From contig CAXXKA010000008.1 of NCBI GenBank assembly GCA_963668625.2, positions 544,001 through 608,000 of the forward strand: a DNA stretch of 64,000 nt. Direction: 5' to 3'. The notes beneath the pieces are model-generated. The model was not told the DNA's origin. It was given only the letters and a program-made list of their open reading frames with translations, and did no database searches. Of this stretch, positions 24,137 to 40,229 are shown piece after piece. The stretch is from an uncultured candidate division Zixibacteria bacterium. GTDB lineage: Bacteria; Zixibacteria; MSB-5A5; UBA10806; 4484-95. A program made the position numbers and the translations under genes. How positions within the stretch are numbered: position 1 is the stretch's first letter; every line of letters begins with the position of its first letter.

Positions 24137-27100
24137 ATGCATAAAATTCTACGGCCGCTGTCTGTTCTGGTGATTTGTTTTGAGATGTTCGCCGGAACCA
24201 TGGCCTACGAATCAGAAATTGAGAGTTCAAGAATCCCAAAGTCGGTTTCTATCAAGTCCAATTCTTTGATTCAATCGAATTCTACATCTGATAATCCCGA
24301 TCTTACATCCAGGAATCCGAACGCATCTCAGTTCCCGCCGAGCATTAGTAGTAACGTTTTATCGGATAGAGAATCCGGGGAAATCGATTTGAGTGTGAAT
24401 AATAGTGATTCACCGAACGTTATTCCTGTAGATTTTAACGATATATCCGAAACTGAACCTAATGATAATTGCGCTACGGCTAATACCCTGACTTTAGGCG
24501 ATCGTATTTATTGCGGCCATCTTGATCTGGACGCCGGAGACCCGGCTGACTTTTTCCAATTCACGTTGGATGATTCATATGAGCTGTGGACTGTCGCATG
24601 CTCTACCTCGGCGCCGAATTATTTAACGGAATGTGACCCACCTATAGGTATTAATAAGCTCTACTTATACGACAGCGACTGCTATACTGTTTTAGGCTAT
24701 GATGATAATATCGATAGCGTCATGTTTGGGAAAGTCCATACAGTAATCAGGACGGACTTATCGCCTGGCATTTATAAAATCAAGGTTATGCCTATTGCAT
24801 CGAATCGCAGCGGTTACTATCATTTAGACTTTACAGCGGGCGCTTATCAGCCACCTGGAAATCCGATTTCTGAAACGGAACCAAACAATACCTACCTTAA
24901 CGCCAATTTAATGTCGTGCGGCGACTATGTCCATTGCGCTAATGTAACGGCTAATTCCGATACCGCCGACTATTTCAAATTCACTCTAGACAACACCTAT
25001 GATTATTGGGCTGTCACATGTTATACTACCGCTCCTACTCCCGCGGATTGTTCACCGGTTTTAGCCGATACCAGACTTTGGTTGTATAATTCCGATTGTT
25101 CGACCTTAATCCAATTTGATGACGAGGGGGGGAATGATCACTATTCTCTTATTAGTCAACTCCATCTCGAACCAGGTACGTACGTGATCAAGGCAAATCA
25201 ATATCGTCCTACTGCTCTCTCAGGTCATTATGATATGGTACTCACCTGCGAAGAGGGGATACCCTATGGTCTCCTAAATGACGAGTGCGAAAATGCCGAG
25301 GTTATTACCGGTCCATATCCGGTTACGGTTTCAGGCACTAACATAGAAGCGACCATCGATTGTCCCGGCTATCTGGATTGGGATGCCATATGGTATAAAA
25401 TCGAGTTGCCTTACGCATTTAATAACCTTACTATCGATTGGACACCGACCTGTGAAATAGATGGTTATTTCAATGAGATCGGCGCGATATACATGCCGGA
25501 CTGCTCCTGCAACAGTCATGTGAACTTGAACTGCAGATGGCAAAGTTGCCCCGAACCGTATGATCCTGTTATAAGCTTTCCTGTTATGTCAAGCGCTGCT
25601 CCTATAGCAGGACCGGCTATGATTTACTATCCTGTTAATCCTGATCGCCAAACGATCTTCCGCTTCATTGTCGACGTGACTGAAGCCGCCTCATGTGATC
25701 TTGAGTGCCCACCCGACGGTATTCCTGAGGGCGAACCGGATTGCGGCCCGAATTATGTAGATAATTATAACGGTGGCTGTGAGTCGTATCCGAATGTGTT
25801 TCAATCTGTCGAGGCCGGCGATATTATATGCGGAACGTCGGGCACTTATATGGTCGGTGACACCCTTTATCGGGATACCGATTGGTATGAACTGACCACC
25901 ACTGATCACAGAGTTATTCAAATAAAAGCCATCGCGGATTTCCCCCTGGAATTGTACATCTTAGATGCCGTATGTCCTACTCCTACTATTCTTGCAAGCG
26001 CTGTGGGACAGCCATGTGATTCTTTGCGTATCTATTATAACGCCCCCGCCGGTACATACAGGTTTGTCGTGTGTCCAAGTCTTTTGCCCGGGTACGATTG
26101 CACAAAAAATTATGTTGCCTGGTTCTATACTACGGAACTGGCATCTCCGATTCCCATTACCGCTCCGGGAACCTGGGTGGGCGATAATACTTGTGACGGC
26201 GTCAGTAATTGTAACCTGTTAGATTATAACGGCCCCGATGTCCCTTACGAAGTTACTATACCGTTCGATGGTCAATGGACGTTCACATTGTGCAACAGTC
26301 CTGTCGTGTGGGATTCATATATTGCTCTTGGCTCAACACTATGTTCGATAGACATCGCACATGGTGATCAAGACGCTTGTGGTGATGCTTGGGGTCATGA
26401 TAAGTTTACTGCCGAACTTTACGCCGGCATCTACTATCTGACAGTTTTTAGCGGGCTTGTTAATGATTGTGGCCCATATCAACTCGATATCACCGGCGAG
26501 CCGTTTTGGCCTAATGACGAATGCACAGGTGTTACTCCCGGGGAACTTATTCCCGGCGGCGCTTTAACGTTTACCGGCAATAATACCGGCGCGGCTTCCA
26601 TAAACGACTGCACCGAATCCTCCATCGGTAGATTCCCTAATGTGTGGGAAGCCTTTACGACCAGTGACTGGTTGGATGTAACGATCGATTACTGCGGAAC
26701 AACTCCAGCGTATTCCACAGTGCAGCTTGAATTGGCTGTTGATTGTCCTTGTAACGATTATGTTTCACCTACTGAATATGACAACACTACATGCGGCGAT
26801 GGCAACTCTACCATAAAATATTCCACACTCCCGCCGGGCACTTACTATATCCCTGTAGCATGGACACCCGATTCCGAAGGTCCATACACCATTCATGTCA
26901 ATGCCGATTCCGCTACGATGCCGGAAATTTCTGTTTACCCGACAGAGATCATTGAAGGCGCTGACTCGGGACAATCTGTTTCTGCTAATCTGATGGTTTC
27001 CAATAGCGGTGGAGCCGACCTTGTTGCCAACGCAAGCATATTTATCAACGAAATACAAGACTTGCGGGCTAATCTCAAGCTGTCGCATGTTCAAAACTTC

Positions 27101-28612
27101 GACCCGCTGTCAAAGGTCAATGGTCTCGAATATGACGCATTGCATTGCGAAATCAATACTCCTCCTGGCTTGTTTGAAGTGCTTCAGGGCGGCGAAAATA
27201 TAAGCTCGGCCATGTCCATCATATCGCTGCCGTTTAGCGATAATGGGACAACCGAGGGGTATCTGGATGATTATGATGTCGCTTATCCTTTCACGTCGAG
27301 TTCTCCCGATGTTGTTTATTCCTTTGTGCCCGATGAGAATACCCTCCTCGATATCAGCCTTTGTCGCAACTCCACCTACGATACCAAACTTTATGTATTC
27401 AAAAACAGCCCTGATACGGTGGTCGCGGTCAACGATGATGCTTTTAATTCCCTTTCAATGGTGAGTAATGTGCCTGTAGCCACCGGTAATACTTATTACA
27501 TTGTGGTTGATGGCAGTCGGGATCAATCCGGCACTTACACTATCGATGTTGCCTATGGGAATCCGCCGCCAGCATGTGATGATGACGCTTTGTTCAGTCA
27601 GAATCCTTCTATACAGAATGATTTCTGGACATTTATGGCCTCCGACATCCAAACCAGTTATGCGATTGCCGATAATTTCTCTCTCGTGTTCGGCAACATC
27701 AATCAAATTAAATGGTATGGTGTTGATCTTGGGAATTCTGGAGGCGGTTGGCAAGAGTGTGATTTTGATGAACCGTCGCTATTTCAAATAAGTTTTTGCA
27801 ATGATGCCGACGGTTTTCCCGGTGATACGGTAGCAAGTTATCTTGTTCAAACCACCGGCGTCCCTACCGGTCAGATATTCTTTGGCGAAGTACCATATGA
27901 ACAAAAGGAGTGGGTTGCAGATATATCGCCTGCTGTTGCGCTCAATGAAGGGTGGGTTATCATTCAAGGAATGGGGAATAATGCTTGTAAGTTCCTCTGG
28001 CAGAATTCCGGCTCGGACGATGCGATGCGGTACTATAGCGATGATAACTTTTGGGCAGTTACCGATTGCGGTATCGCATTCTGTTTACTTGGCGATTATA
28101 TTGAGCCCTGGTTGACTATAGGCGACAGCAATATCGAGATGAACATTTCCATTCCTGCAAACGGGCCAAATATCAATATACCGCTAAGCTTGAATGCGAC
28201 TAATCTGGCGGCCGGTTTATATCATGGCGGTGTTCATTTCGTCACGAATGATGCAGCCCATCCGGAATTTGATATACCCGTGACGTTTGATGTTGTTAGA
28301 GTCGGTATAGACAATGAACCAGCGGAATTGCCCTCGGTTTTCAGTTTATCTCAGAACTACCCGAATCCCTTCAATGCTACGACCTCAATTAATTTCTCTT
28401 TGAAAAATAATGGGGAAGTTACCTTGACAATTTATGATATCCTCGGAAAGCGGGTAAATACACTCTATAACGGAGCTCTTCCAGCAGGTCAACACAGTTT
28501 GATTTGGAATGGCATTGATGATTCGGGGAAGGTTGTTACGTCTGGTATTTATTTCTACCGGCTTGAGAGCGACGAGGGTTCAATTATTAAAAAAATGGTG
28601 ATGTTGAAATAG
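24137..28612 (+). CDS. Large Cys-rich secreted protein with ETEPN/PPC-like repeats and C-terminal T9SS/FlgD-type sorting domain
   Basis: Signal peptide; 2x ISETEPN modules; NDEC-type modules; LSQNYPNPFN...IYDILGKRV..SGIYFYRL..KKMVMLK. Confidence 0.85.
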   Translation: MHKILRPLSVLVICFEMFAGTMAYESEIESSRIPKSVSIKSNSLIQSNSTSDNPDLTSRNPNASQFPPSISSNVLSDRESGEIDLSVNNSDSPNVIPVDFNDISETEPNDNCATANTLTLGDRIYCGHLDLDAGDPADFFQFTLDDSYELWTVACSTSAPNYLTECDPPIGINKLYLYDSDCYTVLGYDDNIDSVMFGKVHTVIRTDLSPGIYKIKVMPIASNRSGYYHLDFTAGAYQPPGNPISETEPNNTYLNANLMSCGDYVHCANVTANSDTADYFKFTLDNTYDYWAVTCYTTAPTPADCSPVLADTRLWLYNSDCSTLIQFDDEGGNDHYSLISQLHLEPGTYVIKANQYRPTALSGHYDMVLTCEEGIPYGLLNDECENAEVITGPYPVTVSGTNIEATIDCPGYLDWDAIWYKIELPYAFNNLTIDWTPTCEIDGYFNEIGAIYMPDCSCNSHVNLNCRWQSCPEPYDPVISFPVMSSAAPIAGPAMIYYPVNPDRQTIFRFIVDVTEAASCDLECPPDGIPEGEPDCGPNYVDNYNGGCESYPNVFQSVEAGDIICGTSGTYMVGDTLYRDTDWYELTTTDHRVIQIKAIADFPLELYILDAVCPTPTILASAVGQPCDSLRIYYNAPAGTYRFVVCPSLLPGYDCTKNYVAWFYTTELASPIPITAPGTWVGDNTCDGVSNCNLLDYNGPDVPYEVTIPFDGQWTFTLCNSPVVWDSYIALGSTLCSIDIAHGDQDACGDAWGHDKFTAELYAGIYYLTVFSGLVNDCGPYQLDITGEPFWPNDECTGVTPGELIPGGALTFTGNNTGAASINDCTESSIGRFPNVWEAFTTSDWLDVTIDYCGTTPAYSTVQLELAVDCPCNDYVSPTEYDNTTCGDGNSTIKYSTLPPGTYYIPVAWTPDSEGPYTIHVNADSATMPEISVYPTEIIEGADSGQSVSANLMVSNSGGADLVANASIFINEIQDLRANLKLSHVQNFDPLSKVNGLEYDALHCEINTPPGLFEVLQGGENISSAMSIISLPFSDNGTTEGYLDDYDVAYPFTSSSPDVVYSFVPDENTLLDISLCRNSTYDTKLYVFKNSPDTVVAVNDDAFNSLSMVSNVPVATGNTYYIVVDGSRDQSGTYTIDVAYGNPPPACDDDALFSQNPSIQNDFWTFMASDIQTSYAIADNFSLVFGNINQIKWYGVDLGNSGGGWQECDFDEPSLFQISFCNDADGFPGDTVASYLVQTTGVPTGQIFFGEVPYEQKEWVADISPAVALNEGWVIIQGMGNNACKFLWQNSGSDDAMRYYSDDNFWAVTDCGIAFCLLGDYIEPWLTIGDSNIEMNISIPANGPNINIPLSLNATNLAAGLYHGGVHFVTNDAAHPEFDIPVTFDVVRVGIDNEPAELPSVFSLSQNYPNPFNATTSINFSLKNNGEVTLTIYDILGKRVNTLYNGALPAGQHSLIWNGIDDSGKVVTSGIYFYRLESDEGSIIKKMVMLK

Positions 28613-28820
28613 TCCGGGGAACCAACGGATTTAAAATATGAACGATTTAATTAAAATAGATCTTTTAACAATAAATTGTAGGGAATCAGGTAAAACAATG
28701 GCTGTTCGGTGTTTCCGAACAGCCCAGTTTAAGTACACCCGGAAGAGTTCTTTCGAGTGTGAAAGAAATTATAGTTAAACTAACATGAAAAACAAGTCAA
28801 AAAAGCTGGAGAAGTGAGTT

Positions 28821-30869
28821 ATGAGAAAACTCTTCTTATTATCCGTAATTTTAATTTTCTCTTGTTTCAGCGCTGCGGATATTTATGCTGATCCACCACC
28901 CAACAATGATTGTGTTAACGCTACCGATGCCGGGACCTTAAGTCTGGATACTCCTGTTCAACTCACCGGTACGACTGTTGAAGCAACTCCATATTGTGAG
29001 TCGCTAATACAAGATGATGCATGGATAAAATTTACTATCACATCTTGTATGGATATAATCATTGACTTCTGTGATGACCCGAATAAAGTTGATGAATTTG
29101 GCACGTTTTTATTCGCTGACTGTTCTTGTGATATATTCGCTAACTACAATCAGGTAGTCAATAGTTGTCTTAACGGTAATCCCTCTATATCCTGGTATGG
29201 CCTGGAAGCGGGCACCTATTACTATCGGATTATCCCACCCGAGGGTTTGGGAGATTCATATGTTTTAAATATTGTAGGCACCGAATGCGCGCCGCCGCCG
29301 ACAGGCGCTTGCTGCTATATGCAAGAAGAACAGATAATGTGTTTCGTGACCGACAATCAGAGCAGTTGCGATGAAGTAAACGGTACATTCCATTTAAACG
29401 CAAACTGTGATGACGTTGATCCGCGCAACGGCATTGCCGATATTTGCGAAACAGGTGCACAGGAAGGCGCTTGCTGCTACATGCAAGAAGAGCAGATAAT
29501 GTGTTTCGTGACTGACAATCCGGACAGTTGCGATGAAGTAAACGGTACATTTCATCTAGACGCAAACTGTGATGACGTTGATCCGCGCAACGATATTGCC
29601 GATATTTGCGAAACGGTTGTGCAGGAAGGCGCTTGTTGTATCAATGATGGTATGGATTGCACCGATGGTGTAACCGAAACTGATTGTTTCGATGTTTACC
29701 GCGGTGTCTGGATGGGCGAAGGTTCTACCTGTGGCTCTTTCGATCCTGAAGAGGGCTGGTCAGGCTGCCAGATTACCCCGATTGGCGCTTGTTGCATGAA
29801 TGATGGTATGGATTGCACCGATGGTGTAACCGAAACTGATTGTTTCGATATTTACCGCGGTGTCTGGATGGGAGCCAGCTCTTCCTGCGGCTCTTATAAT
29901 CCGGAAGAGGGCTGGTCAGGCTGCCAGACTACTCCGACTGGCGCTTGCTGTATGAATGATGGCATGGATTGCACCGATGGTGTAACCGAAACTGATTGTT
30001 TTGATATGTACCGAGGTGTCTGGATGGGCGAAGGTTCTACCTGCGGCTCTTATAATCCGGAAGATGGCTGGTCAGGCTGTCAGACTACTCCGACTGGCGC
30101 TTGCTGTATGAATGATGGCATGGATTGCACCGATGGTGTAACCGAAACTGATTGTTTCGATATGTACCGAGGTGTCTGGATGGGCGAAGGTTCTACCTGC
30201 GGCTCTTATAATCCGGAAGATGGCTGGTCAGGCTGCCAGACTACTCCGACTGGCGCTTGCTGTATGAATGATGGTATGGATTGCACCAATGGTGTAACCG
30301 AAACTGATTGTTTCGATATGTACCGAGGTGTCTGGATGGGTGAAGGTTCTACCTGCGGCTCTTATAATCCGGAAGATGGCTGGTCAGGCTGCCAGACTAC
30401 TCCGACTGGCGCTTGCTGTATGAATGATGGTATGGATTGCACCAATGGTGTAACCGAAACTGATTGTTTCGATATGTACCGAGGTGTCTGGATGGGTGAA
30501 GGTTCTACCTGCGGTGAATACGATGAAGAAACCGGTTGGTCGGGTTGCAGCGTCACTACTACCTATGAATACCTCCCCGGTGATGCTAACATGGCTGCCG
30601 GCTCGTGGCCGCCGAATGTAATCGGCGCGGATGTCACCTACCTGGTGAACTATTTCCGGGCTATCGCCGCGCCGTGTCTGGTCGGTGGTTTCTATAACTC
30701 GGCTGATGCTAACGGTGATTGTTCGGTAATCGGCGCTGATGTCACTTACCTGGTACAATATTTCCGAGGCGCGAACGAATTACATTTCTGCCCGGACTAT
30801 GAGCCAACCTGGCAAAGCAGCGGTGATTTACCGCCCGAGGCTCCCGATGGCTGGCCGAATTGTGAATGA
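28821..30869 (+). CDS. Secreted Cys-rich GACC-repeat protein with C-terminal dockerin-like (GDAN) domain
   Basis: Signal peptide; 2x54-aa and 6x52-aa GACC repeats; YLPGDAN...IGADVTYLVNYF / ADANGDC..IGADVTYLV. Confidence 0.85.
   Translation: MRKLFLLSVILIFSCFSAADIYADPPPNNDCVNATDAGTLSLDTPVQLTGTTVEATPYCESLIQDDAWIKFTITSCMDIIIDFCDDPNKVDEFGTFLFADCSCDIFANYNQVVNSCLNGNPSISWYGLEAGTYYYRIIPPEGLGDSYVLNIVGTECAPPPTGACCYMQEEQIMCFVTDNQSSCDEVNGTFHLNANCDDVDPRNGIADICETGAQEGACCYMQEEQIMCFVTDNPDSCDEVNGTFHLDANCDDVDPRNDIADICETVVQEGACCINDGMDCTDGVTETDCFDVYRGVWMGEGSTCGSFDPEEGWSGCQITPIGACCMNDGMDCTDGVTETDCFDIYRGVWMGASSSCGSYNPEEGWSGCQTTPTGACCMNDGMDCTDGVTETDCFDMYRGVWMGEGSTCGSYNPEDGWSGCQTTPTGACCMNDGMDCTDGVTETDCFDMYRGVWMGEGSTCGSYNPEDGWSGCQTTPTGACCMNDGMDCTNGVTETDCFDMYRGVWMGEGSTCGSYNPEDGWSGCQTTPTGACCMNDGMDCTNGVTETDCFDMYRGVWMGEGSTCGEYDEETGWSGCSVTTTYEYLPGDANMAAGSWPPNVIGADVTYLVNYFRAIAAPCLVGGFYNSADANGDCSVIGADVTYLVQYFRGANELHFCPDYEPTWQSSGDLPPEAPDGWPNCE
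29304..30563 (+). repeat. Intragenic tandem repeats: 2 x 162 bp then 6 x 156 bp
   Basis: Unit starts at 29304, 29466, then 29628, 29784, 29940, 30096, 30252, 30408; inner copies nearly identical. Confidence 0.92.
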
Positions 30870-30943
30870 ACTCCCTGATTCGAGTAATTAAACTCAGCTA
30901 CTACTTCTTAAAAGTGCTCTAACACTTTGACCTTGATCTACCG

Positions 30944-30971
30944 AAGGCGGCCTTAACGGGCCGCCTTTTTT
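30944..30971 (+). terminator. Intrinsic terminator
   Basis: AAGGCGGCC-ttaacg-GGCCGCCTT followed by TTTT. Confidence 0.8.
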
Positions 30972-31087
30972 GAGTTAACAATACGGCAACAATTTTGGTA
31001 TATCTGTGGTGTTTTCTGGTGCTTTCTGGTGAAGATAAAAAAATGACGGAGCACTTATAACCCCGTCATTTATATTATATCAATTTG

Positions 31088-31342
31088 CACTAGTGTCCGG
31101 TGTTTTTCGTTAAATTTTAAATTTCTCCTTGGAATTGTTAATGAAAAATATTTTCAGATATAATTATTTTATTCAGCGTATCATTCATCCTGACATATCC
31201 TGCCGATGTTAGGCTTGGTTTTCTGGTTTCCAAGCGCTGCTTGGAAACCTTCTTGAATCATGTAGAATGCGCATTCTGCCGGCAAACAAGCCACGTTGCG
31301 AAGCAGCGCTTCGCAACGAGATGAAAAGACCGGACAGTAGTG
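31088..31342. mobile_element. MITE-like element, copy 2 (inverted relative to copy 1)
   Basis: TIRs CACTAGTGTCCGG / CCGGACAGTAGTG; 9-bp TSD ATCAATTTG at 31079-31087 and 31343-31351. Confidence 0.88.
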
Positions 31343-31580
31343 ATCAATTTGGGAAAATTAATATGTAATTTTCGTCACGATTTTGTCACCTGGTGTTGTA
31401 ACTTGTTGTGTTACAAGGAGGTTTATGGGGCTCGATTCCCCGTAGCGCTACTTTTCAATTAGGGTTTGCTGAATAATTATTAACATCATAGTTTAGCGAT
31501 AGATAGCTTTGTTCTATAGTCATGCAAGTGAACGTGATTTTGAATAAATGAGCCTAAAAGTTTGCGCCTTGAGATCGAAG

Positions 31581-31875
31581 ATGTATCGTAAAACCAATTC
31601 AAATCAACTTAAATTCTAGAATTATTACTTACCATTTGACGGTAAACAAAGAAATGATAATCGGTGAGTAATTTTATCGAAGCAGATACCATGGGCAGAG
31701 ATTGAACAGAAGTATACATCCAATTTTTCCGAGAGCAGTAATACAGGTTGTCCTCCCTGATCGGCTCGTATTGCTTTAGGAGCGCTTATTATCATGGAGC
31801 GTCTGGTTCTAACTGATCGGGAGACGGTGCAGCAGATATCGGAGAATCCTTATCTTCAATACTTTCTTGGACTTT
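31581..31875 (+). pseudogene. IS5-family transposase remnant
   Basis: Manual translation MYRK...DNR*VILSKQIPW...RIALGALII..RL.LTDRETVQQISENPYLQYFLGL with internal stops, truncated. Confidence 0.75.
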
Positions 31876-32175
31876 ACATTTATAGTTAAGAAATCATTAC
31901 TATTTATTTGATTGCTATGACACAATAAATCTGTTGACGAGTTTTCGTTTTTAAAATATAAACAGTCAGGGCAATTACAATCACAAGCAAAGCATTCATT
32001 ATAAAAAGTCCTTATGCTGATACGGTTAGCTTATCGTGTTTAATGATTCGGCCGGTGACGGGTTTGTTTTATGTATATATGATGTCCGCTAACTTTAAAT
32101 CGAAGGAGGTTACAGGCTTTATAGATTCGTTACCGGTAATTCGGCTTATTGAAAATCAATAAGGGAGGTTTATTA

Positions 32176-32412
32176 ATGGCAGTGAAAAGAAAAGCTGTTA
32201 CCGTACGCAGACCCAAAGGTGGGGGATTTCGGATACCCAAATCGTTGCTCGAGGAGTTCACCAGAGCGCCTATTATCGATTTGGGGGGCGCTGCGGGTTA
32301 CTGGCCTATCGCACCGGCTCTATTGAAACGAGCCGATTTTTTCAAGAAGCTGGCAACCGATAAGCAGTTTTTGAAAGAATTCGATGTCATGATCGTACCC
32401 AAGGCGCGTTAG
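32176..32412 (+). CDS. Small basic protein, putative radical-SAM substrate/precursor
   Basis: 78 aa from ATG 32176 with GGAGG RBS; directly upstream of the rSAM gene. Confidence 0.7.
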   Translation: MAVKRKAVTVRRPKGGGFRIPKSLLEEFTRAPIIDLGGAAGYWPIAPALLKRADFFKKLATDKQFLKEFDVMIVPKAR

Positions 32413-32421
32413 TAACTACTC

Positions 32422-32461
32422 AGGGGGAGAGAGGTGGCTCTACTGCGCCTCTCCCCTTTTT
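32422..32461 (+). terminator. Intercistronic hairpin / attenuating terminator
   Basis: GGGGAGA...TCTCCCC followed by TTTTT, between small ORF and rSAM. Confidence 0.6.
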
Positions 32462-32496
32462 AAGCGAAACAAATTCCATATAAGGCGGATATTATC

Positions 32497-33549
32497 ATGG
32501 CCGTAAAATTCGAGCATCTCGATTTTTTACGAAACATAGCATTCATGCTGACCTACAAATGCTTTATCGCTTGCCCTCATTGCCTGTTCGATTCCGGCCC
32601 GGCACGCAAAGAACAGATGCGTCTGGCTGATGTTTCCGAGTGGCTTACCGGGGCGGCGGCTTACCGGGATGGTCATATCGGCGGGCTGGCGCTGACAGGC
32701 GGCGAGCCATTTGCCAGCCTCGATTTGCTGGAGAAAGTATCACGATGGGGCGCCCGGCTGGGATTCGTGCAGTCGGTTGTTACCAATGGCTACTGGGCCG
32801 GCAGTTACCTCAAGGCTTTGGCCACGCTCAAACGATTTCCGGCAATCAAGCTCATAGCATTAAGCACCGATGAGTACCATCAGAAATTCATCCCGATAGA
32901 GAATATCGAGAACGCCATACGCGCTGCTGACGAGTTGGGGCGAATCCATAGCCTGTCGGTTTGCACCGATAATTACGATAACCCGGCGTACAAGCGTACT
33001 ATCGATAAGCTTCAGCAAATAACCGAGCCGGAAAATATCCGTACGACGATTACCTTTCCTGTCGGTCGGGCGGAGCGAAAGGTTGATGGTTACCAGTATC
33101 GTATGAGCGCCGAGCCGGTGGTTTCGGTATGCTCGATGGCCAGCTCGCCGGTAATTTTCCCCGATGGCCGGGTGACCGGTTGTATCGGGCCGGTCGCAGT
33201 CAAGCTCGAGGGCAACCATCCGCTTGCCTGGGGCAGCCTTCGCGAAAACACATTAGCGGAGATACTGGATCGCGCCGAGTGTGACCCGGTGTTTCATGCT
33301 CTTCGCATATGGGGCCCGCATAAGCTGGTGTCGATCATCCGCGAGGCCGGCAAAGATAGCTGGCTGCCCAAAGAGTATCAAGCAGGCAGTATTTGCGATG
33401 TGTGTTACCGTCTGTTTAGGGATGACCGCATACTTGGTTTTTTGGATGATCTCCGCCGGGATGAGCAGTTCACGGAGAAGGTAGCCTACGGGCGGGTGTA
33501 CTATCTCGATGAGCCGCGGATGGCGGAGATGCTGGGAGTGGGAGTGTGA
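32497..33549 (+). CDS. Radical SAM enzyme with twitch-like C-terminus, EpeE/YydG-like
   Basis: CFIACPHC, TGGEP, TNGYW, STDEYH, SVC...PDGRVTGC, SICDVC. Confidence 0.85.
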   Translation: MAVKFEHLDFLRNIAFMLTYKCFIACPHCLFDSGPARKEQMRLADVSEWLTGAAAYRDGHIGGLALTGGEPFASLDLLEKVSRWGARLGFVQSVVTNGYWAGSYLKALATLKRFPAIKLIALSTDEYHQKFIPIENIENAIRAADELGRIHSLSVCTDNYDNPAYKRTIDKLQQITEPENIRTTITFPVGRAERKVDGYQYRMSAEPVVSVCSMASSPVIFPDGRVTGCIGPVAVKLEGNHPLAWGSLRENTLAEILDRAECDPVFHALRIWGPHKLVSIIREAGKDSWLPKEYQAGSICDVCYRLFRDDRILGFLDDLRRDEQFTEKVAYGRVYYLDEPRMAEMLGVGV

Positions 33550-33550
33550 A

Positions 33551-33958
33551 TTAACTTCTCAAGAACGCTTCGATTTTATCGATCGTACTTTCGAAATCAT
33601 CTTTGATAGAATGTTCCCAGACGACTAATACTTGCCATCCGAGTGAACGTAACTGTCTATTCTTTCTTTGATCTCTCGCTCTGTTCTGGGTGATTTTCTC
33701 TCGCCAAAAGTCGCTCGACAGTTTAGGTTCCCATCTGGGGTATTGCCAGCCATGCCAAAAGTCACTATGAATAAATACGGCTTTTTTCTCCGATGGCTTT
33801 GCTATGTCCGGTGTGCCTGGTACTCTTTTATAGTGTTTTTGGAAATATATTTTACGTTTCCTTAATGCGGAGAAAACCATTAGCTCGATCTTGCTATTCT
33901 TAGGCCGAACACGGCTCATCAAATAGCTACGTTGCTTTTTAGTGAGGCGATCTGTCAT
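33551..33958 (-). CDS. vsr: Very short patch repair endonuclease
   Basis: MTDRLT..QRSYLMSRVR..NSKIE, PGTPDI, FIHSDFWHG, FW..KI..N..RD, GWQVLVVWE. Confidence 0.92.
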   Translation of the reverse strand: MTDRLTKKQRSYLMSRVRPKNSKIELMVFSALRKRKIYFQKHYKRVPGTPDIAKPSEKKAVFIHSDFWHGWQYPRWEPKLSSDFWREKITQNRARDQRKNRQLRSLGWQVLVVWEHSIKDDFESTIDKIEAFLRS

Positions 33959-34000
33959 AAAACAACATATATGAGTTCGCCAAAAATTAAAAGTCAATTC

Positions 34001-35650
34001 TTAATCAGTTTTTAAAAGCGTTATTAATCGCCCTTTTATATTGTGATATACCGTTGTTAATTTTTCTTTTGCTTCGGATTGCAACAATGCTGTATGCATC
34101 AAAGCATCTCGGATTGGTTTATATTGTTTAGAATCATTTGTAAGCCCAATACTAGGGCCACCCTTATGTGGATCAATTGTACTAGCAAGATTATCCATAT
34201 CAAGATAACTCAACTTGCTTTTGTTTTGTCTTAATTCAATATTTACATTACCACGTAATTTATTATTTTTTTCCTTTTCTAATAATTCTTCGAATCTTTT
34301 TTCTATTGGGGCAGGGAGGAGTATTTTTTCATTCTCAATATATAATCTTAATAGATTTTCAGATATAAAACAATCAGCATAAGAGCTAAAATTAAACGTT
34401 GCATCAGAATGTAGCAAATTTACCCAATCTTTTATCTTTTTTGCACTTTTAGTATCCGCTGATAAGGCGTACTCATCAGCCACTGCATTAAACAATTCTT
34501 CAGACTTGCGATCTTTTGGTGTAATGCTTGGATTGTCTGGATCGCCATCCTTTTTATGATCCCTTCTAAGTTTATCCCACTGATCAAATATTATTGCAAT
34601 TACTTCTGATTTAAAAATCTCCAAGAAACTATTAAATTTAGGATCATCTGATACTATATTTTCTCTACTACTAGTAAATCTATCCTTTTCATCATCCAAT
34701 TCATTATAATGAATTTGTCCATATAGGTAACTCTCAACAACCCGAGCTGTTGGTATATGTTTCAATATATCTTTTTCTCTTAATCTTCCATTAACGAATA
34801 AATCTACACTTACTTTATGGTCAGTTGATCTTATCTTTAGATCTTTAGGTTTTTCAACTGAGGCTATAAATCCCTTAATTGGATGTTTAACCTTTAGCTC
34901 AATAATTTTTACTTTAATATTCTTTAGTCTGGTTCTTATAAAAGGATCATCTAAATTATTTAAATTCCATACGAACTCGGTTTTTGTTGCTAAATCATCT
35001 AAATCATCGAAATTTATTATTTTGTTATCAAAGTAAATATTAAAAGTCTTGTCAATTAAAGAGAATCGAAAATTTAACGCTACGATTTTTCTTAAATACT
35101 CAACTCTATTATATATGCCTTCGCGAATATGTTCAAAATATATAATTGTCCCTTGCGAATGATCTTTAGTCAATTCAGCGAACGAGTCTAATTTAATCTC
35201 TTCAAGGGGATATTTATCTGGGGTAAGATCTTGTTCGATTGCTTTATCAAGACCACTATTGTCAATTATTCCGCCGGTGTAGTCAGTAGCTTTTGTTTTA
35301 GATATAATTGTTATTTTTTCAGCGCATGATAATAATGCGAGCTTCCCAATGCCTTTTCTGCCGATGAAAGGCCTCCCCTTCCTAGACTTAAAGTGGCCAT
35401 CTTTTCTCTTTGAATATCCTATCTTAAGAAACATATTCTGAAAATCATCAGTATTCATACCTTTTCCATCATCTTTTATTATCATACTGCTTGAATCTCT
35501 GTTAATATAAACCCAAACGTTTTTCGCGTCAGCATCCCAGGAATTAGATATTGCTTCACCTAATACTGTCATAAAACTTCTATATAAATTTCTTCCAAGA
35601 TGATTTAGAACACTTAATGATATTTCAAAAGTAAAACGATCCTTAGCCAT
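34001..35650 (-). CDS. GHKL (MORC/HATPase_c-like) ATPase with C-terminal putative HEPN domain
   Basis: EAISNSWDADA, DDGKGM, GRKGIGKLA, QGT boxes; C-terminal ENLLR...YLDMDNL...IRDALMH. Confidence 0.8.
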   Translation of the reverse strand: MAKDRFTFEISLSVLNHLGRNLYRSFMTVLGEAISNSWDADAKNVWVYINRDSSSMIIKDDGKGMNTDDFQNMFLKIGYSKRKDGHFKSRKGRPFIGRKGIGKLALLSCAEKITIISKTKATDYTGGIIDNSGLDKAIEQDLTPDKYPLEEIKLDSFAELTKDHSQGTIIYFEHIREGIYNRVEYLRKIVALNFRFSLIDKTFNIYFDNKIINFDDLDDLATKTEFVWNLNNLDDPFIRTRLKNIKVKIIELKVKHPIKGFIASVEKPKDLKIRSTDHKVSVDLFVNGRLREKDILKHIPTARVVESYLYGQIHYNELDDEKDRFTSSRENIVSDDPKFNSFLEIFKSEVIAIIFDQWDKLRRDHKKDGDPDNPSITPKDRKSEELFNAVADEYALSADTKSAKKIKDWVNLLHSDATFNFSSYADCFISENLLRLYIENEKILLPAPIEKRFEELLEKEKNNKLRGNVNIELRQNKSKLSYLDMDNLASTIDPHKGGPSIGLTNDSKQYKPIRDALMHTALLQSEAKEKLTTVYHNIKGRLITLLKTD

Positions 35651-36722
35651 AATTTCTCACATGTTCTTTTATACTTTTCCCTATAACTTTGCCCAATCTA
35701 ACCGGTACTGCGTTTCCAATAAACTTGGCAATTTGTGCGATTTGAATAGTGTTACCGGGCTCATAAAATCTATAGTACTTGGGGAAGGTCTGAAAAATAG
35801 CAGCTTCCCTGAGGCTGATTGCCCTGTCTTGCTCGGGATGACCGAATCTACCATTGCCCAATCCGATACATTGTGTTGTCATAGTTGGTGCAGGTTCATC
35901 CCATTTCATCCTGCCATAAACAGAGCAGCGATATGTTTTACCTGATTTTTTCTTATGACAAGGCAGTTGCAAATCCTCACTCCAACTTTTAGAGCTACCA
36001 CCATCATGGGGTGTTGCTTTTATTCTCTTTACATTTTCAGCGCTAAGCTTTCTAGTTCGGTGAAGTGGATCCTTGGGATGAACATCCCCGTCTTTTATGG
36101 GTGGTAATTTATAAATTACATCCCTGACATGGATTTTATTATTTTCGTGAGTTTTTTGGACAAGCGAAATATCACCGAATCTCGAAGCCAGTAATACTAA
36201 ACGCTTTCTCCTTTGCGGAACACCATAATCTGATACATCTACTATTTTATATTCTGTTTTATATCCACATCTATCCAAGGTATCCAGAAATGTTTTAAAG
36301 ATGGGATATTTCTTGGTATCGGCCAAATTGCTTACGTTTTCCATGGATACTATATCCGGTAGCACTTGCTCTATAAGTTGAGCGAATTTCTCTAGTGGTT
36401 GAAGTTGTTGTTTGGTTACTCTCCTTAAATTATAACTGGAAAAAGGCTGGCAAGGAGCACACCCGGCTAGTACGCGAATAGTATCATCCTCATTTCCGAA
36501 CAATTCATTGATATCTTTCGCTTTCACATCTAAAATATCTTTACCAATGAAATTGGAATTGTTGTTGTACTCGAAACCGTATCTGCATGATTCATCATTA
36601 TCAATACCGGCGACCACATCCAATCCCTGTTTGATGAGACCATGTGTTAAGCCACCAATCCCACAAAATAAATCTATTACTTTTATTTTTGGTCTAAACT
36701 TTTTCATTTGTTTGTTACTCAT
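35643..36722 (-). CDS. dcm: DNA (cytosine-5)-methyltransferase
   Basis: DLFCGIGG, APCQPFS, MENV, VPQRRKR, REAAIFQTFP, IGNAVP; start uncertain (36707-36770). Confidence 0.92.
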   Translation of the reverse strand: MSNKQMKKFRPKIKVIDLFCGIGGLTHGLIKQGLDVVAGIDNDESCRYGFEYNNNSNFIGKDILDVKAKDINELFGNEDDTIRVLAGCAPCQPFSSYNLRRVTKQQLQPLEKFAQLIEQVLPDIVSMENVSNLADTKKYPIFKTFLDTLDRCGYKTEYKIVDVSDYGVPQRRKRLVLLASRFGDISLVQKTHENNKIHVRDVIYKLPPIKDGDVHPKDPLHRTRKLSAENVKRIKATPHDGGSSKSWSEDLQLPCHKKKSGKTYRCSVYGRMKWDEPAPTMTTQCIGLGNGRFGHPEQDRAISLREAAIFQTFPKYYRFYEPGNTIQIAQIAKFIGNAVPVRLGKVIGKSIKEHVRNYG

Positions 36723-36956
36723 TTGTTGTCTGATTTTAGTTCGATGTAACAAGTTAACCCAAAACACCAAAATATACCCTGTTATCTAAGATCGATCAAG
36801 TAGTTTTTCATTTTTTTTAAAATGCGATTAATGGTTTTAAATCAGAGGGATGAAATATATTTAGTTCGCCCCCCCGGAATAACGCGAATATTCCATTGTA
36901 TCATTATCAGAAAATATTTATCTTATACCAGTCGGATCTAACTTACGGAGGTTGTT

Positions 36957-37505
36957 TTGAGATATCTTGCCTTTAATATAATACTCGCTGTAATGCTTCT
37001 CCCCCTCGGCTGTGATGATAACCCCACCGGGCCGGAAAACGTGCTGGTGCTCTCCGATGGTTTCGAACGTCTGGGTAGCCCCACCTATACCGGCTGGCAG
37101 ATCGCGCAGGACTCGATCGAGTTTGATATCGATACGCCTGTCGAGGGTAGTGTCTACTCGTTGATGCTTCGACCGGGCAATGATATCGCCGGCACAGCCG
37201 AGAAGTTTCTCGATAACGAACATGGCAGCGGGATTTATCAATTCTCGGTGTGGGCTAAGATGTCCTCAGGCCAGCCATCGCAGACAGGCTACGTACAGTT
37301 CGGCGTGTTTGCCGGGGATGTCGTAACACAGGCGAAATCGACCCCGTTGACCGATACCTCCTGGGCATGGATTACGATTACCGATACCCTGACATTAGGC
37401 CAGGATGAACAGTTGTACCTGAAACTCTCCTGCGGCGCGGGTCACACCGGCGATCAGTGGTATTCTCTTTTCGATGCTGTCAGGCTGGAGAAAATTAACA
37501 GGTAA
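36957..37505 (+). CDS. Lipoprotein with probable beta-sandwich (CBM-like) domain
   Basis: Lipobox LPLGC; GGAGG RBS; YQFSVWAK...FDAVRL pattern. Confidence 0.6.
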   Translation: MRYLAFNIILAVMLLPLGCDDNPTGPENVLVLSDGFERLGSPTYTGWQIAQDSIEFDIDTPVEGSVYSLMLRPGNDIAGTAEKFLDNEHGSGIYQFSVWAKMSSGQPSQTGYVQFGVFAGDVVTQAKSTPLTDTSWAWITITDTLTLGQDEQLYLKLSCGAGHTGDQWYSLFDAVRLEKINR

Positions 37506-37717
37506 GGATATTCCCGAAAGCGCTCCAGACGGTTAGTGGCTGTTGCTATGGCTCGGCTTATCCCCGACTGGTACAATTCCAGGTAATAAATACTTTCTTG
37601 TATATAATTTATCGATAGATCAATATTTCATCTACTGTTCCAAAATAAGGCGGCCTTTTTTAAGAGCGCCTTATAATTTGCCGAAAACCAAGTAAGACAT
37701 ATATTTTGGAGGACTAA

Positions 37718-38590
37718 ATGCGCACTCTTCAGGTGATAACTGCAATTCGCGTGATCGAGAAAATCTACGATAATGAAACCAAAGATGCTATATTCGGTGG
37801 CGGTCTTATCTCGGCTGCTCAAAGCAACGAATCGGATTTCCTTCAACGCTTTATTACCGCTACTCATGAGTTGGCTCGCGCCTCGGCAGTGCTGCAGCAA
37901 AACTCCGATGTTATAAAGGTTCTCAAGGCATTCGATCTCGAGCCTCTTATCGACAGGGATTTTATAACAAACCTGGCGCTTTCGGCCTCGCAGGGTACCG
38001 GCAGCGATAAGCTCATATCACTTCTGCAGATGGTGGTCGATCCGTGGCGGGCCATGACCGGCTGTACCAGCGCCCTTGATAGCTTGACGATCCCGGATGA
38101 TTTACGTCGCGCCCAGGCCGAAAAAAATGTCATTTCGATAGAACTTCACTATAAAGAATACCACTACCCGACTTTAACCGAGACGATTAAAGTAGTGGAT
38201 TTGCTCAACCAGTTGTACCAGGTGGTCGCCGCTATCTATGGCAAGGCCAACCAGGCTGATTTGACATTGGTGAAAATCGATAGCGGTTCCTCGATACGTT
38301 TCGATTGCAAGGGTATCAAAGAGCTGATTCAGCCGATAAAGGCGTTTATGATCGAGGCCTGGAATGAGCTTCGCCATAAAGGTATAGATAAACTTCTGGG
38401 GGATAACAAGGCCATGCTCTCCAGCTTACCGATAATGGATCAGCTTGCCAAGCGCGAGCAGGATAAATCCATCGATATAGAGAAAGCGGAGCAATTGCGC
38501 AGGAAAATACTCGGTACTACACTCGGTTTATTCGCCCAGGGAGCCAGGATGTCTAACACCGCACCCTGTCGACCTCAAAATCCGGTATAG
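37718..38590 (+). CDS. Hypothetical protein
   Basis: 290-aa ORF with GGAGG RBS; C-terminus looks atypical, possibly truncated. Confidence 0.6.
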   Translation: MRTLQVITAIRVIEKIYDNETKDAIFGGGLISAAQSNESDFLQRFITATHELARASAVLQQNSDVIKVLKAFDLEPLIDRDFITNLALSASQGTGSDKLISLLQMVVDPWRAMTGCTSALDSLTIPDDLRRAQAEKNVISIELHYKEYHYPTLTETIKVVDLLNQLYQVVAAIYGKANQADLTLVKIDSGSSIRFDCKGIKELIQPIKAFMIEAWNELRHKGIDKLLGDNKAMLSSLPIMDQLAKREQDKSIDIEKAEQLRRKILGTTLGLFAQGARMSNTAPCRPQNPV

Positions 38591-38884
38591 TACTATATCG
38601 AACTACCCCTTGCGGGTGATTTTTAGAGATGGCAATATAGCCGCTAACACAATATATCACAAGCAAATAGAGGCATATCCAGGATTTAAAAAAATCCGAG
38701 ATCGATAAAATCATTTTTATCAATGATACGTATAATTCCCATATCAAGACAGAATCGAGCAATGGTGGCTATCTGTTTTTAAAAGTATTGCAATTTTAGA
38801 TATCTCAGGAAAGACCGATAAAACCATTGACCATAAGTATAATACTATTATCTTGTACTTATGAATTTATCGTAAACGGAGGTT

Positions 38885-39754
38885 GTGATGAGACAAACTA
38901 AATTAACTATTGTTGCACTGTTGGTATTACTGGTTTCCGTGTCGTCCTACGGCTCATATAAATCCGAGGAGATTAGCGCCGCCAAGAAAGCTTACGATCT
39001 TGGCAAGTACGATGAATGTGCCGAGCACTACAAAGCGGCGATTAAGATCGATTCTGATTCCGGGGAGTTGTATTATAAATATGCTGCCTGCCTGGCTTTG
39101 CAAGGCAATTTGGATGGGGCATTTGAAAACCTGGAGAAAGCCCTGGAAAACGGTTTTATCGCTATTGACGATTTGAAGAAAAATAACGATTTTGCGTTTC
39201 TTGCCGGTGACAAACGCTGGCTGGTTATAGTCAGCAAAGGCGAAAAGTACCTGAAAAAATATCTCGATTCGGTAAATATCTGGGTCTACCAGATGTTCGA
39301 ATCGGACAGGCTCGACCGGAAAAATTTCGGCAGGAAAGATGACTGGTCGCTGGTTGCCAAGAAAGATAGTATGCGTCGCGAAAGAATCAAAGGTATCATG
39401 GCTAAAAGCGAGTTGAAGGTATCCGACGATTACTATCACGCCGCCATGATAATGCATCACGGAACGGACTCCACCGATTATAGAATAGCCAACGAACTGG
39501 CCGCCAAAGCTGTCGAGTTGGATTCCAAGAACGAAAAAGCCAGATGGTTATTCGCGGCCTCAAAAGACCGTCACCTGCTGGCAACGGGTAAACCGCAGAT
39601 TTACGGTACGCAGTACAATTATGTAAACGGCAGGTATACGTTGGACCCATTCGATCGAAAAGCGATCAGCGATAAGCAGCGTAAAAAATGGGGAGTACCG
39701 TCCCTGGATGAGACGCAGAAAAAGATAGCCCGACTAAACGGCATAAAAAAATAA
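38885..39754 (+). CDS. Secreted TPR protein with DUF6624-like C-terminal domain
   Basis: Signal peptide, TPR helices, DR.L...GKPQIYGTQY...R.KWGV.SL. Confidence 0.7.
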   Translation: MMRQTKLTIVALLVLLVSVSSYGSYKSEEISAAKKAYDLGKYDECAEHYKAAIKIDSDSGELYYKYAACLALQGNLDGAFENLEKALENGFIAIDDLKKNNDFAFLAGDKRWLVIVSKGEKYLKKYLDSVNIWVYQMFESDRLDRKNFGRKDDWSLVAKKDSMRRERIKGIMAKSELKVSDDYYHAAMIMHHGTDSTDYRIANELAAKAVELDSKNEKARWLFAASKDRHLLATGKPQIYGTQYNYVNGRYTLDPFDRKAISDKQRKKWGVPSLDETQKKIARLNGIKK

Positions 39755-39779
39755 AACTCTACTGCCCCGAGGAGGGGAA

Positions 39780-40229
39780 ATGAAATCAATTATACTTTTG
39801 TTGCTTGCTCCTTTGCTATTTGCTTTTGCATGTAGTAAAACCAAGGTCGATATCGAGCAGGAAAAGGCCGATTTGCTCGATACCGATAGAGCTTTTGCCG
39901 CCGCCTCCATCGAAAAAGGCGCGGCCGAGGCATTCAGGATGTATTTAACCGAGGACGCTCTTCAGTTGCCACAGGGGGGCGCGCCGCTTATGGGCCGGGA
40001 GTCTATCTACCAGAATATGGCTAAATCTACATTGGATTATACACTGGCCTGGACACCGCAACAAGCCGAGGTTGCCCGGGCCGGAGATATGGGCTGGTCC
40101 TGGGGATTGTATAAAATGAACTGGGTAGATAAAGACGGTGAGCCCAAAGAGAGTAACGGCAAGTATCTGAATATCTGGCGCAAGATGGATGACGGCAGCT
40201 GGCGCGTTGTTGTTGATATGGGGAATTGA
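39780..40229 (+). CDS. SnoaL/DUF4440-like lipoprotein
   Basis: Lipobox AFAC; GDMGWSWG, GKYLNIWRKMDDGSWRVVVD. Confidence 0.8.
   Translation: MKSIILLLLAPLLFAFACSKTKVDIEQEKADLLDTDRAFAAASIEKGAAEAFRMYLTEDALQLPQGGAPLMGRESIYQNMAKSTLDYTLAWTPQQAEVARAGDMGWSWGLYKMNWVDKDGEPKESNGKYLNIWRKMDDGSWRVVVDMGN

Follow-up and report, generated by a model that had tools for sequence, protein, structure and literature searches.

What does a radical S-adenosylmethionine (SAM) enzyme act on when the gene of a very small protein stands immediately in front of its own gene? The question is raised by a two-gene unit in a window of 64,000 nucleotides from an uncultured candidate division Zixibacteria bacterium (GenBank assembly GCA_963668625.2, contig CAXXKA010000008.1, positions 544,001 to 608,000). 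All coordinates are positions in this window, and homologous loci are labelled L001 and so on. As read from the sequence, the unit lies on the + strand and consists of a small open reading frame (ORF) of 78 amino acids (aa), a hairpin with a T-run, and a radical SAM ORF of 350 aa. The original prediction, which regarded the unit as a candidate peptide- or protein-modification system, had named a small ORF, a strong ribosome-binding site, a hairpin and a radical SAM ORF, and all of them were found in the sequence. The small ORF stood, but the start given for it, 32164, did not, as this position lies inside the ribosome-binding site. The frame starts with the ATG at 32176 and ends in a TAG-TAA double stop at 32410-32415.

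The pair is best explained as a self-contained and horizontally mobile enzyme-substrate module, belonging broadly to the type of RiPPs (ribosomally made peptides that are modified after translation). In this reading, to which a probability of about 0.65 is assigned, the 78-aa protein would be the substrate, and the enzyme would use the scaffold and binding mode of the Bacillus subtilis peptide epimerase EpeE without the residues by which EpeE returns hydrogen. The features of the pair are as follows.

32161..32168, + strand: ribosome-binding site AAGGGAGG, 7 nt 5' of the small-ORF ATG, read directly from the sequence
32176..32412, + strand: small ORF, 78 aa, putative substrate, member of a family of stand-alone proteins of 56-174 aa (ORF and profile search)
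32227..32259, + strand: small-protein residues 18-28 (FRIPKSLLEEF) with the nearly invariant Pro21 and Phe28, predicted docking helix (conservation and complex model)
32272..32313, + strand: small-protein residues 33-46 (IIDLGGAAGYWPIA), predicted strand and core loop around the nearly invariant Gly41 at 32296-32298 (conservation and complex model)
32380..32403, + strand: small-protein residues 69-76 (FDVMIVPK), conserved hydrophobic C-terminal motif (family consensus; no confident placement in the complex model)
32422..32461, + strand: terminator-like hairpin and T-run between the genes (-21.9 kcal/mol, z = -4.0)
32497..33549, + strand: radical SAM enzyme, 350 aa, EpeE-like fold with radical SAM core and one-cluster C-terminal domain (sequence and fold matches)
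32560..32583, + strand: enzyme segment invariant in 120/120 homologues, aligning with an EpeE motif
32962..32964, + strand: Cys156, family-specific invariant Cys (120/120 homologues; the aligned EpeE residue is Thr) and candidate catalytic residue
33184..33186, + strand: Ile230, at the position of the EpeE hydrogen-atom donor Cys223 (alignment of high posterior probability; in contact with the small protein as modelled in the complex)
33478..33507, + strand: enzyme residues 328-337 (KVAYGRVYYL) of the C-terminal helix, where the small-protein helix is predicted to dock (conservation and model contacts)

Linkage of the two genes

The linkage of the two genes was investigated in both directions. 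A scan of one genome per species gave 75 loci with the enzyme gene (92 pattern matches). A hidden Markov model of the small ORF, built iteratively on six-frame translations of all loci, matched 60 of these 75 loci and the window. All of the matches (74/74) were on the strand of the enzyme gene and within about 560 bp upstream of it; the opposite strand and the rest of the flanking DNA gave no match. Among the 15 loci without a match, three had no upstream DNA (L040, L064, L070), two held enzyme fragments (L067, L074), and ten carried divergent small ORFs. In seven Bathyarchaeota loci, a divergent ORF of 85-100 aa occupied the same place and had the same I-P, G and F-x-x-x-F-x-V anchors; its profile matched the family profile with an hhalign probability of 41% (E 2.7e-4). 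Another divergent ORF was at this place in L050. Furthermore, L058 (4919-7050) and L062 (4920-7077), from a delta-proteobacterial bin and a Nitrospiraceae bin, each encoded two tandem overlapping enzyme paralogues preceded by a different ORF of 71-78 aa (MK..VSVKYTDLFVD...), which may represent a two-enzyme variant of the system.

For the reverse direction, metagenome contigs were scanned with the motif of one small-protein subtype (16 of 49 aligned sequences), and 39 loci were obtained. Four of them were set aside: two were 20-residue matches that arose by chance within a different gene, and two ended less than 120 bp after the ORF. In 32 of the 35 assessable loci, a member of the enzyme family was found 70-190 bp downstream on the same strand. 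The original prediction had named a conserved upstream small ORF as the thing to look for, and its expectation was borne out in both directions. A linkage of the kind that joins a precursor gene to its modifying enzyme in RiPP systems is thus present.

No third conserved gene was found when 811 ORFs surrounding the enzyme gene, up to about 6 kb away, were clustered: the enzyme (73 loci) was joined only by small-ORF groups or antisense shadows, and a few further clusters were each common to 3-5 related genomes. According to Pfam, which was applied to 147 of the 258 nearest neighbours, the neighbouring genes had unrelated functions, mostly housekeeping.

The small ORF is more than a chance frame. 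A profile of 49 small-protein homologues, compared with 1.84 billion representative proteins, gave 225 cluster representatives at E ≤ 0.001, and 80 of them were at 1e-10 or better. Among the 150 matches listed of these 225, all were 56-174 aa in length, the longer ones contained two full repeats of the unit, and none was fused to another domain. A word-based search with the small protein found two relatives. The protein gave no match in Pfam, NCBIfam or PADLOC and no usable match in a protein atlas search. When the 49 alignment members were compared with Pfam at E ≤ 1, scattered single matches were obtained, the best being SspB (two members, E 0.022). An AbrB/MazE-like fold, suspected from the I-P-x-x-L motif, was supported by no search.

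The small protein has a basic N-terminus (MAVKRKAVTVRRPK), a central segment (GGAAGYWPIAPALL) and the C-terminal FDVMIVPK. In 162 aligned small-protein domains, Pro21 (154/155), Phe28 (144/159) and Gly41 (160/162) were nearly invariant, and no other residue was. Position 33 was Arg in 144/161 domains, and the window protein has Ile there. Position 42 was always hydrophobic (Ile 88, Leu 47, Tyr 12, Val 10 and Met 3), Pro44 was kept in 114/162 domains, and the C-terminal consensus was F-[ED]-[VI]-[VM]-[IL]-[VMT]-P-[KR]. The protein modelled alone gave a fold of low confidence with a few helices (predicted local distance difference test score, pLDDT, 62.5; predicted template modelling score, pTM, 0.29).

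These frequencies bear on the chemistry. The original prediction had suggested a crosslink around Tyr-Trp-Pro, but Tyr42 was found in 12/162 and Trp43 in 49/162 domains; because those residues vary, such a crosslink is not supported as the chemistry of the family. Thioether or aromatic crosslinks were likewise rejected as the general chemistry, as Tyr42 and Trp43 vary and any Cys was present in just 18 of 152 proteins, with 134 of the 152 being Cys-free.

The hairpin between the genes is formed by a G+C-rich stem of 10 bp and an inner stem of 4 bp at about 32422-32458, leading into TTTTT at 32457-32461. The best 45-nt fold had -21.9 kcal/mol with z = -4.0 against mononucleotide shuffles, and the whole 96-nt spacer had z = -1.33 against dinucleotide shuffles. 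The hairpin was not listed by a simple promoter/terminator scan. A strong hairpin (best 45-nt fold with z ≤ -3 against 30 mononucleotide shuffles) was present in 28 of 61 homologous spacers. These hairpins showed no sequence conservation, and perfect stems of 10-18 bp occurred, for example in L007, L011, L045, L047, L061 and L066. Four Bathyarchaeia spacers had no hairpin and contained runs of 5-7 T; archaeal termination uses T-runs of that kind. The intergenic distance ranged from 36 to 390 bp and was commonly about 80-130 bp. The hairpin or T-run probably lets the message of the small protein outnumber that of the enzyme. Among the sequencing runs listed as containing this stretch, none is recorded as RNA.

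An EpeE-like enzyme without the hydrogen-return residues

The sole Pfam match of the enzyme ORF was Radical_SAM (PF04055, E 5.7e-10). The best NCBIfam match was the YydG epimerase model TIGR04078, with 75.4 bits (E 5.1e-21) over profile positions 4-305 of 309. The family cutoff of this model (300 bits) was not reached, and by this score the enzyme is not a member of the YydG family. Among solved structures, the best relatives by sequence were six EpeE/YydG entries (8AI1-8AI6, E about 1e-12). The AlphaFold model of the enzyme (pLDDT 86.6) was also compared with known structures by Foldseek. The top nine matches were all EpeE chains, with E about 1e-17 (best 1.3e-17) and template modelling (TM) scores of 0.71-0.78, and the next fold was BlsE (E 1.9e-8). 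In both sequence and fold, the enzyme is therefore closest to EpeE/YydG, the peptide epimerase of B. subtilis, as the original prediction had proposed from the motifs.

The motif parallels were confirmed by residue alignment to 8AI1-8AI6. The aligned motifs of the enzyme and EpeE were CFIACPHC/CNASCDHC, LTGGE/FTGGE, TNGYW/SNGFW, STDEYH/SYDEYH, PDGRVTGCIGP/HDGEIYPCCSP and SICDVC/SICGVC, so that the two share the motif order CX3CX2C, GGE, NG[FY]W, S-x-DEYH, DG...C, SIC-x-VC. The enzyme has the CX3CX2C motif of a radical SAM cluster and, as modelled, an EpeE-type fold whose C-terminal domain is predicted to hold one cluster. Eight Cys residues were invariant in 120/120 homologues (22, 26, 29, 156, 212, 229, 300 and 303), and of the five outside the core motif, four (212, 229, 300 and 303) align with or adjoin Cys residues of EpeE. 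Like EpeE, the enzyme has one auxiliary-cluster domain and no RiPP recognition element (RRE) domain. In the C-terminal helix, Tyr331, Arg333, Tyr336 and Leu337 were invariant or nearly invariant.

The mechanism of EpeE depends on residues that were not conserved here. According to PMC13012085, Cys223 of EpeE returns hydrogen to the C-alpha radical, the peptide is flanked by S-adenosylhomocysteine and the radical SAM cluster on one face and by Cys223 and the auxiliary cluster on the opposite face, and reduction of the thiyl radical by the auxiliary cluster is proposed, with a proton from Asp210. In the window enzyme, the position of Cys223 is occupied by Ile230, and Ile was found there in 119/120 homologues; the preceding Cys229 aligns with EpeE Cys222. 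The loss of the donor Cys noticed in the original prediction is therefore a property of the family. Further, EpeE Asp210 aligns with Ser217, and Ser was present in 106/120 homologues. The enzyme differs from EpeE in these two replacements, in the extra invariant Cys156 and in the low identity of about 20%.

The enzyme could still be an ordinary peptide epimerase in a distant epipeptide-like system, with Cys156 as the hydrogen donor and with the hydrophobic residue after Gly41 or residues of the C-terminal V-M-I-V becoming D-amino acids. The EpeE fold and the motif order agree with this possibility, Cys156 is located on a barrel strand whose Ser152 contacts the small protein in the modelled complex, and the residues seen at position 42 are Ile, Leu, Val, Tyr and Met; EpeE epimerises Val and Ile (PMC8326336). 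However, both members of the proposed Cys223/Asp210 pair of EpeE are replaced, no structure places Cys156 near the substrate, the peptidase and ABC transporter of epeXEPAB are missing, and the score was far under the YydG family cutoff. Plain epimerisation is thus possible but doubtful.

The partners also differ. In both systems, the substrate or putative substrate gene is directly upstream of the enzyme gene, and the peptide is predicted at the same place of the enzyme. The window small protein is unrelated to EpeX/YydF, has no family match, and belongs to a family conserved along 60-70 residues. In addition, epeXEPAB has a peptidase and an ABC transporter, neither of which is conserved at the pair loci, and these are accordingly not operons of the EpeX/YydF type. 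One paper's title reportedly describes the epe locus as widely distributed in Firmicutes. The pair occurs in many bacterial phyla and in archaea, whereas a passage of PMC8326336 describes epipeptide clusters in B. subtilis and a few Gram-positive species only.

Other radical SAM systems were less similar. As described in PMC8326336, the proteusin epimerases (PoyD and OspD, with NHLP-type precursors) also act on the backbone C-alpha-H of long, partly structured precursors and use a critical Cys as hydrogen donor; they are different in having no auxiliary cluster and in carrying a C-terminal RRE. They were not among the sequence matches of the enzyme in NCBIfam and the PDB. In SPASM/twitch enzymes (anSME, SuiB, SkfB and PqqE), an auxiliary [4Fe-4S] cluster adjoins the substrate, there is no Cys donor, and the cluster is thought to accept an electron from the substrate radical. 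BtrN is a further enzyme of this SPASM/twitch group of maturases and oxidases. Foldseek gave weak fold matches to anSME (6.4e-8), SuiB (1.5e-7), SkfB (2.9e-7) and PqqE (2.1e-7). These enzymes are far more remote than EpeE; two auxiliary clusters are present in most of them and an RRE in many, and the likeness in chemistry is an analogy only.

Glycyl-radical activases, such as PFL-AE with GrcA/YfiD, are radical SAM enzymes, too; their target, in a partner protein's loop, is an invariant Gly whose next residue is hydrophobic or aromatic. An identity of the enzyme with PFL-AE was rejected, as PFLE_PFLC gave 14 bits against a cutoff of 174. The small protein was also rejected as a glycyl-radical protein: it had no glycyl-radical domain match in Pfam, and both its size and its degree of order are too low for shielding a radical. 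Similarly, prokaryotic viperin (pVip) was excluded, because just core residues 14-130 matched, with 31 bits against a cutoff of 180 (33 bits in PADLOC).

The predicted complex and the proposed fate of the radical

The complex of the two proteins was modelled, and the score was 0.65 (median of 0.66, 0.58 and 0.65) compared with 0.00 for the best of three controls. The runs agreed in at least 59% of contacts, with a partner pLDDT of at least 47. In the model, small-protein residues 18-28 lie on enzyme residues 328-336, which belong to the invariant helix A-Y-G-R-x-Y-Y-L; the expected error is lowest for these contacts, at 1.5-2.1 A. Residues 33-36 are predicted to pair with the enzyme strand 208-211, just before Cys212, and residues 37-43 to contact Leu119, Ser152, Thr184, Ser217 and Ile230. 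The Gly41 loop is thereby placed at the positions of EpeE Asp210 and Cys223. In these contacts, the most conserved residues of both proteins would meet. The internal core between a leader and a follower, which had been suggested in the original prediction, matches this arrangement of an N-terminal helix for binding and an internal segment at the active site.

On this basis, the following sequence of events is proposed. The amphipathic helix of the small protein (I-P-x-x-L-L-x-x-F, 18-28) would dock on the C-terminal helix of the enzyme (A-Y-G-R-x-Y-Y-L, 328-337) and in this way substitute for the absent RRE. Residues 33-36 would then add a strand beside enzyme residues 208-211, and the loop around Gly41 with the hydrophobic residue 42 would come to lie between the SAM-binding cluster and the auxiliary cluster, like the EpeX core in EpeE. 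From this loop, the 5'-deoxyadenosyl radical may take a hydrogen of the backbone (C-alpha) or of C-beta. As Cys223 and Asp210 of EpeE are replaced by Ile230 and Ser217, the radical would have to be resolved in some other way. One option is a relocated hydrogen-atom donor, which could be the invariant Cys156, and the outcome would still be epimerisation. The other is that the retained auxiliary cluster oxidises the radical, leading to dehydrogenation, hydroxylation or backbone scission. In EpeE itself, mutation of Cys223 led to peptide breakage, as given in PMC8326336, which makes scission chemically plausible in the EpeE fold. The second option may be taken further to a reaction undescribed for radical SAM enzymes, in which hydrogen is abstracted at or next to Gly41 and the resulting backbone radical, for want of a thiol donor at this place, is oxidised by the auxiliary cluster; protease-free cleavage or a stable backbone modification would result. 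This proposal is rather unlikely.

Several results weigh against the reading as an enzyme-substrate module. The small protein is moderately conserved over its whole length, with no hypervariable core, and the nearly invariant residues Pro, Gly and Phe are typical structural residues, which would suit a folded partner no less than a substrate. In contrast to classical RiPP clusters, of which epeXEPAB is an example, the examined loci had no conserved protease or exporter within about 6 kb, with an occasional ABC transporter or peptidase, so that genes for leader removal and export were not part of the unit. In the reverse test, no enzyme was found in three of the 35 loci (L088, L096 and L102) within 621, 391 and 704 bp of downstream sequence, respectively. 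A strong hairpin was missing from 33 of the 61 spacers, the hairpin statistics were obtained by mononucleotide shuffles, and many of the loci are related and not independent. As to the model, the score mark is reached by 58 of 80 solved complexes and two of 110 mismatched pairs, and this calibration is only rough as the complex was modelled with own alignments for both proteins. The partner pLDDT was under 50 in one run, and the model may be leaning on, or remembering, the solved EpeE-peptide complexes.

A different role of the small protein would agree with part of these results. It might be an accessory subunit, chaperone or specificity factor that replaces a recognition domain, the true substrate (a peptide, protein or metabolite) being encoded elsewhere. 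Conservation over the whole length with nearly invariant Pro, Gly and Phe and the lack of a linked protease or exporter agree with such a role, and the tight predicted interface with the invariant C-terminal helix fits a stable subunit equally. However, tandem small genes precede a single enzyme gene in L020, L023 and L026, and tandem small genes were also found in L096. Fused two-repeat small proteins occur as well, Bacteroidota loci encoding a fused double unit, and such arrangements are usual for substrates and not for subunits. Moreover, the model sets the central loop at the catalytic positions of EpeE, the small protein alone has a low-confidence fold, and there is no third conserved gene to supply a substrate. 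An accessory subunit is therefore unlikely, and the enzyme-substrate module remains the preferred explanation.

At L096, the two tandem small ORFs are located at 540-982, with no enzyme in the 391 bp downstream. The next gene there, on the minus strand at about 1064-1369, is presumably an S-adenosylhomocysteine hydrolase, as judged by motif.

Spread, surroundings and meaning of the pair

The enzyme family is large and widely distributed. A word-based search yielded 354 enzyme homologues at E ≤ 0.001 among 4994 candidates, and the family thus has at least 354 members. The best 120 homologues listed had 345-400 aa and, the protein of the window excepted, 46-79% identity to the window enzyme. Bacterial loci were found in Chloroflexota, Nitrospirota, Acidobacteriota, Bacteroidota, Cyanobacteriota, Chlorobiota, Myxococcota, Verrucomicrobiota, Zixibacteria and delta-proteobacterial bins, and archaeal loci in Bathyarchaeia, an Asgard archaeon, Methanoperedens, Methanothrix, Methanoregula and Archaeoglobus. 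The host genome has one copy of the enzyme gene. The gene was found in none of 40 host relatives (two of the same genus, seven of the family, 14 of the order and 17 of the class), of which 32 were at least 90% complete. Its absence from these relatives indicates that the gene is accessory and was horizontally acquired here.

A quick maximum-likelihood tree was made with 69 enzyme sequences, six matches under 900 bp and L051 (X or stop in the translation) being left out. A clade of 33 rows (Shimodaira-Hasegawa-like approximate likelihood ratio test, SH-aLRT, 97) held all 15 G-x-W-P small-protein types, the nine double-unit types and the seven Bathyarchaeota types. None of the 17 G-I-P-V-P types fell into this clade; with the tree rooted at its midpoint, all were in the opposite half, which was weakly supported (SH-aLRT 6). 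The subtype labels of the small protein required 11 changes on the enzyme tree, compared with a shuffled mean of 41.6. The tree was thus split by small-protein subtype and not by taxonomy, which was scrambled: Bathyarchaeia and Chloroflexota occurred in both halves, Archaeoglobus paired with an Acidobacteriota bin, and the Asgard locus was sister to a Bathyarchaeota clade. Since related sequences share labels, the tree shows only that the two genes travel jointly. The pair is spread by horizontal transfer.

In the window, the last base of the enzyme ORF is separated by a single base from a convergent Vsr gene, the first of a type II restriction-modification system (33551-36770, - strand; Pfam and PADLOC) with the following genes.

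33551-33997, - strand: Vsr nicking endonuclease of the restriction-modification system
34001-35650, - strand: HATPase_c_3 protein matching PADLOC REase_II models, HATPase-type restriction enzyme
35643-36770, - strand: C5 cytosine methylase of the restriction-modification system

On the other side, the small ORF is preceded by 1.3 kb (30870-32175) with 37% G+C and no long ORFs. The absence of an adjacent protease, transporter or RRE gene, which had been noticed in the original prediction, was confirmed by these neighbours. The G+C content of the pair was 53.9%, that of the restriction-modification genes 31-40%, and the window mean 45.4% (standard deviation 4.4% for windows of the same size). 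An insertion-sequence remnant was observed about 290 bp 5' of the small ORF: a stop-to-stop piece of 42 aa at 31761-31886 (+ strand) with a DUF772 transposase domain (E 3.4e-7), joined by 31668-31757 (+ strand), which lies in its frame ahead of a stop. Rfam gave no match at E ≤ 1 over 30800-33800, and a known RNA element in or before the operon was rejected; no tRNA was found in 28000-40000. Mobile or defence genes were also among the neighbours of other loci, including TIR-STAND (L003), Mrr (L005), an integrase (L006), HATPase_c_3 (L009), transposases (L041 and L058), a PLD-domain gene (L062) and a gene for a patatin-like protein (L001).

These surroundings suggest that the pair might be a selfish or defence module of two genes, acting by toxin-antitoxin or abortive infection, in which the radical SAM enzyme would be the effector and the small protein would restrain it. 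The pair stands alone, is highly mobile across bacteria and archaea and was not found in the 40 relatives. In the window and at the loci just named, it lies beside restriction-modification, transposase and other such genes. In the usual toxin-antitoxin layout, furthermore, the small gene comes first, the large one follows, and the small product is made in excess. However, PADLOC yielded just generic radical SAM core matches to pVip (33 and 26 bits), and most neighbourhoods consist of housekeeping genes. No family member was found in a viral contig scan, where the four matches were all to the generic radical SAM core (32-35% identity over less than 100 residues), or in a plasmid search, where all eight matches had at most 27% identity. 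The genes are 36-390 bp apart with a hairpin and do not overlap as in most toxin-antitoxin pairs, and the nearest relative is a peptide-modifying enzyme. A defence function is thus very unlikely compared with the enzyme-substrate module.

Some further genes were observed near the pair. A HATPase_c_3 protein was present both in the window and in the Asgard locus L009 (2624-4384, - strand), which is probably due to chance or to a shared defence-island context. In some archaeal loci, a further radical SAM gene was next to the pair (L027 7071-8129, L050 3003-4085, L016 3553-4986 and L023 2768-4549). It was directly downstream of the pair in two Methanotrichaceae loci, and a B12-binding radical SAM gene was upstream of the pair in a Bathyarchaeia locus and in a Methanoperedens locus. 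Farther upstream in the window, two large predicted secreted proteins are encoded on the + strand. The first (24137-28612, 1491 aa) has a C-terminus that resembles a type IX secretion sorting domain. In the second (28821-30869, 682 aa), a Cys-rich repeat (GACC...DCTDGVTETDCF...WSGCQ) recurs about eight times in near-identical form and the C-terminus is dockerin-like; this protein has no firm Pfam match.

A literature search found no description of this family, which does not prove it unpublished. Among radical SAM enzymes of this fold, EpeE alone has been solved, and Cys223 and Asp210 are the basis of its mechanism. The present family keeps the fold and the auxiliary cluster with both residues replaced, and is therefore a natural experiment on a peptide radical without the hydrogen-return path. 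The strictly linked partner family of 225 representative clusters provides a defined candidate substrate, so that the question is testable at once. Moreover, the pair is spread over many bacterial phyla and archaea and has neither a protease nor an exporter linked to it, which suggests that it does not make a classical secreted antimicrobial peptide but has a different role. Radical SAM pairs that modify peptides or proteins and are common to both domains are rare, and the present pair would be one of them. If the rather unlikely reaction at Gly41 were true, the product of a conserved two-gene unit of bacteria and archaea would be a small protein or peptide that is modified and serves the cell in some way.

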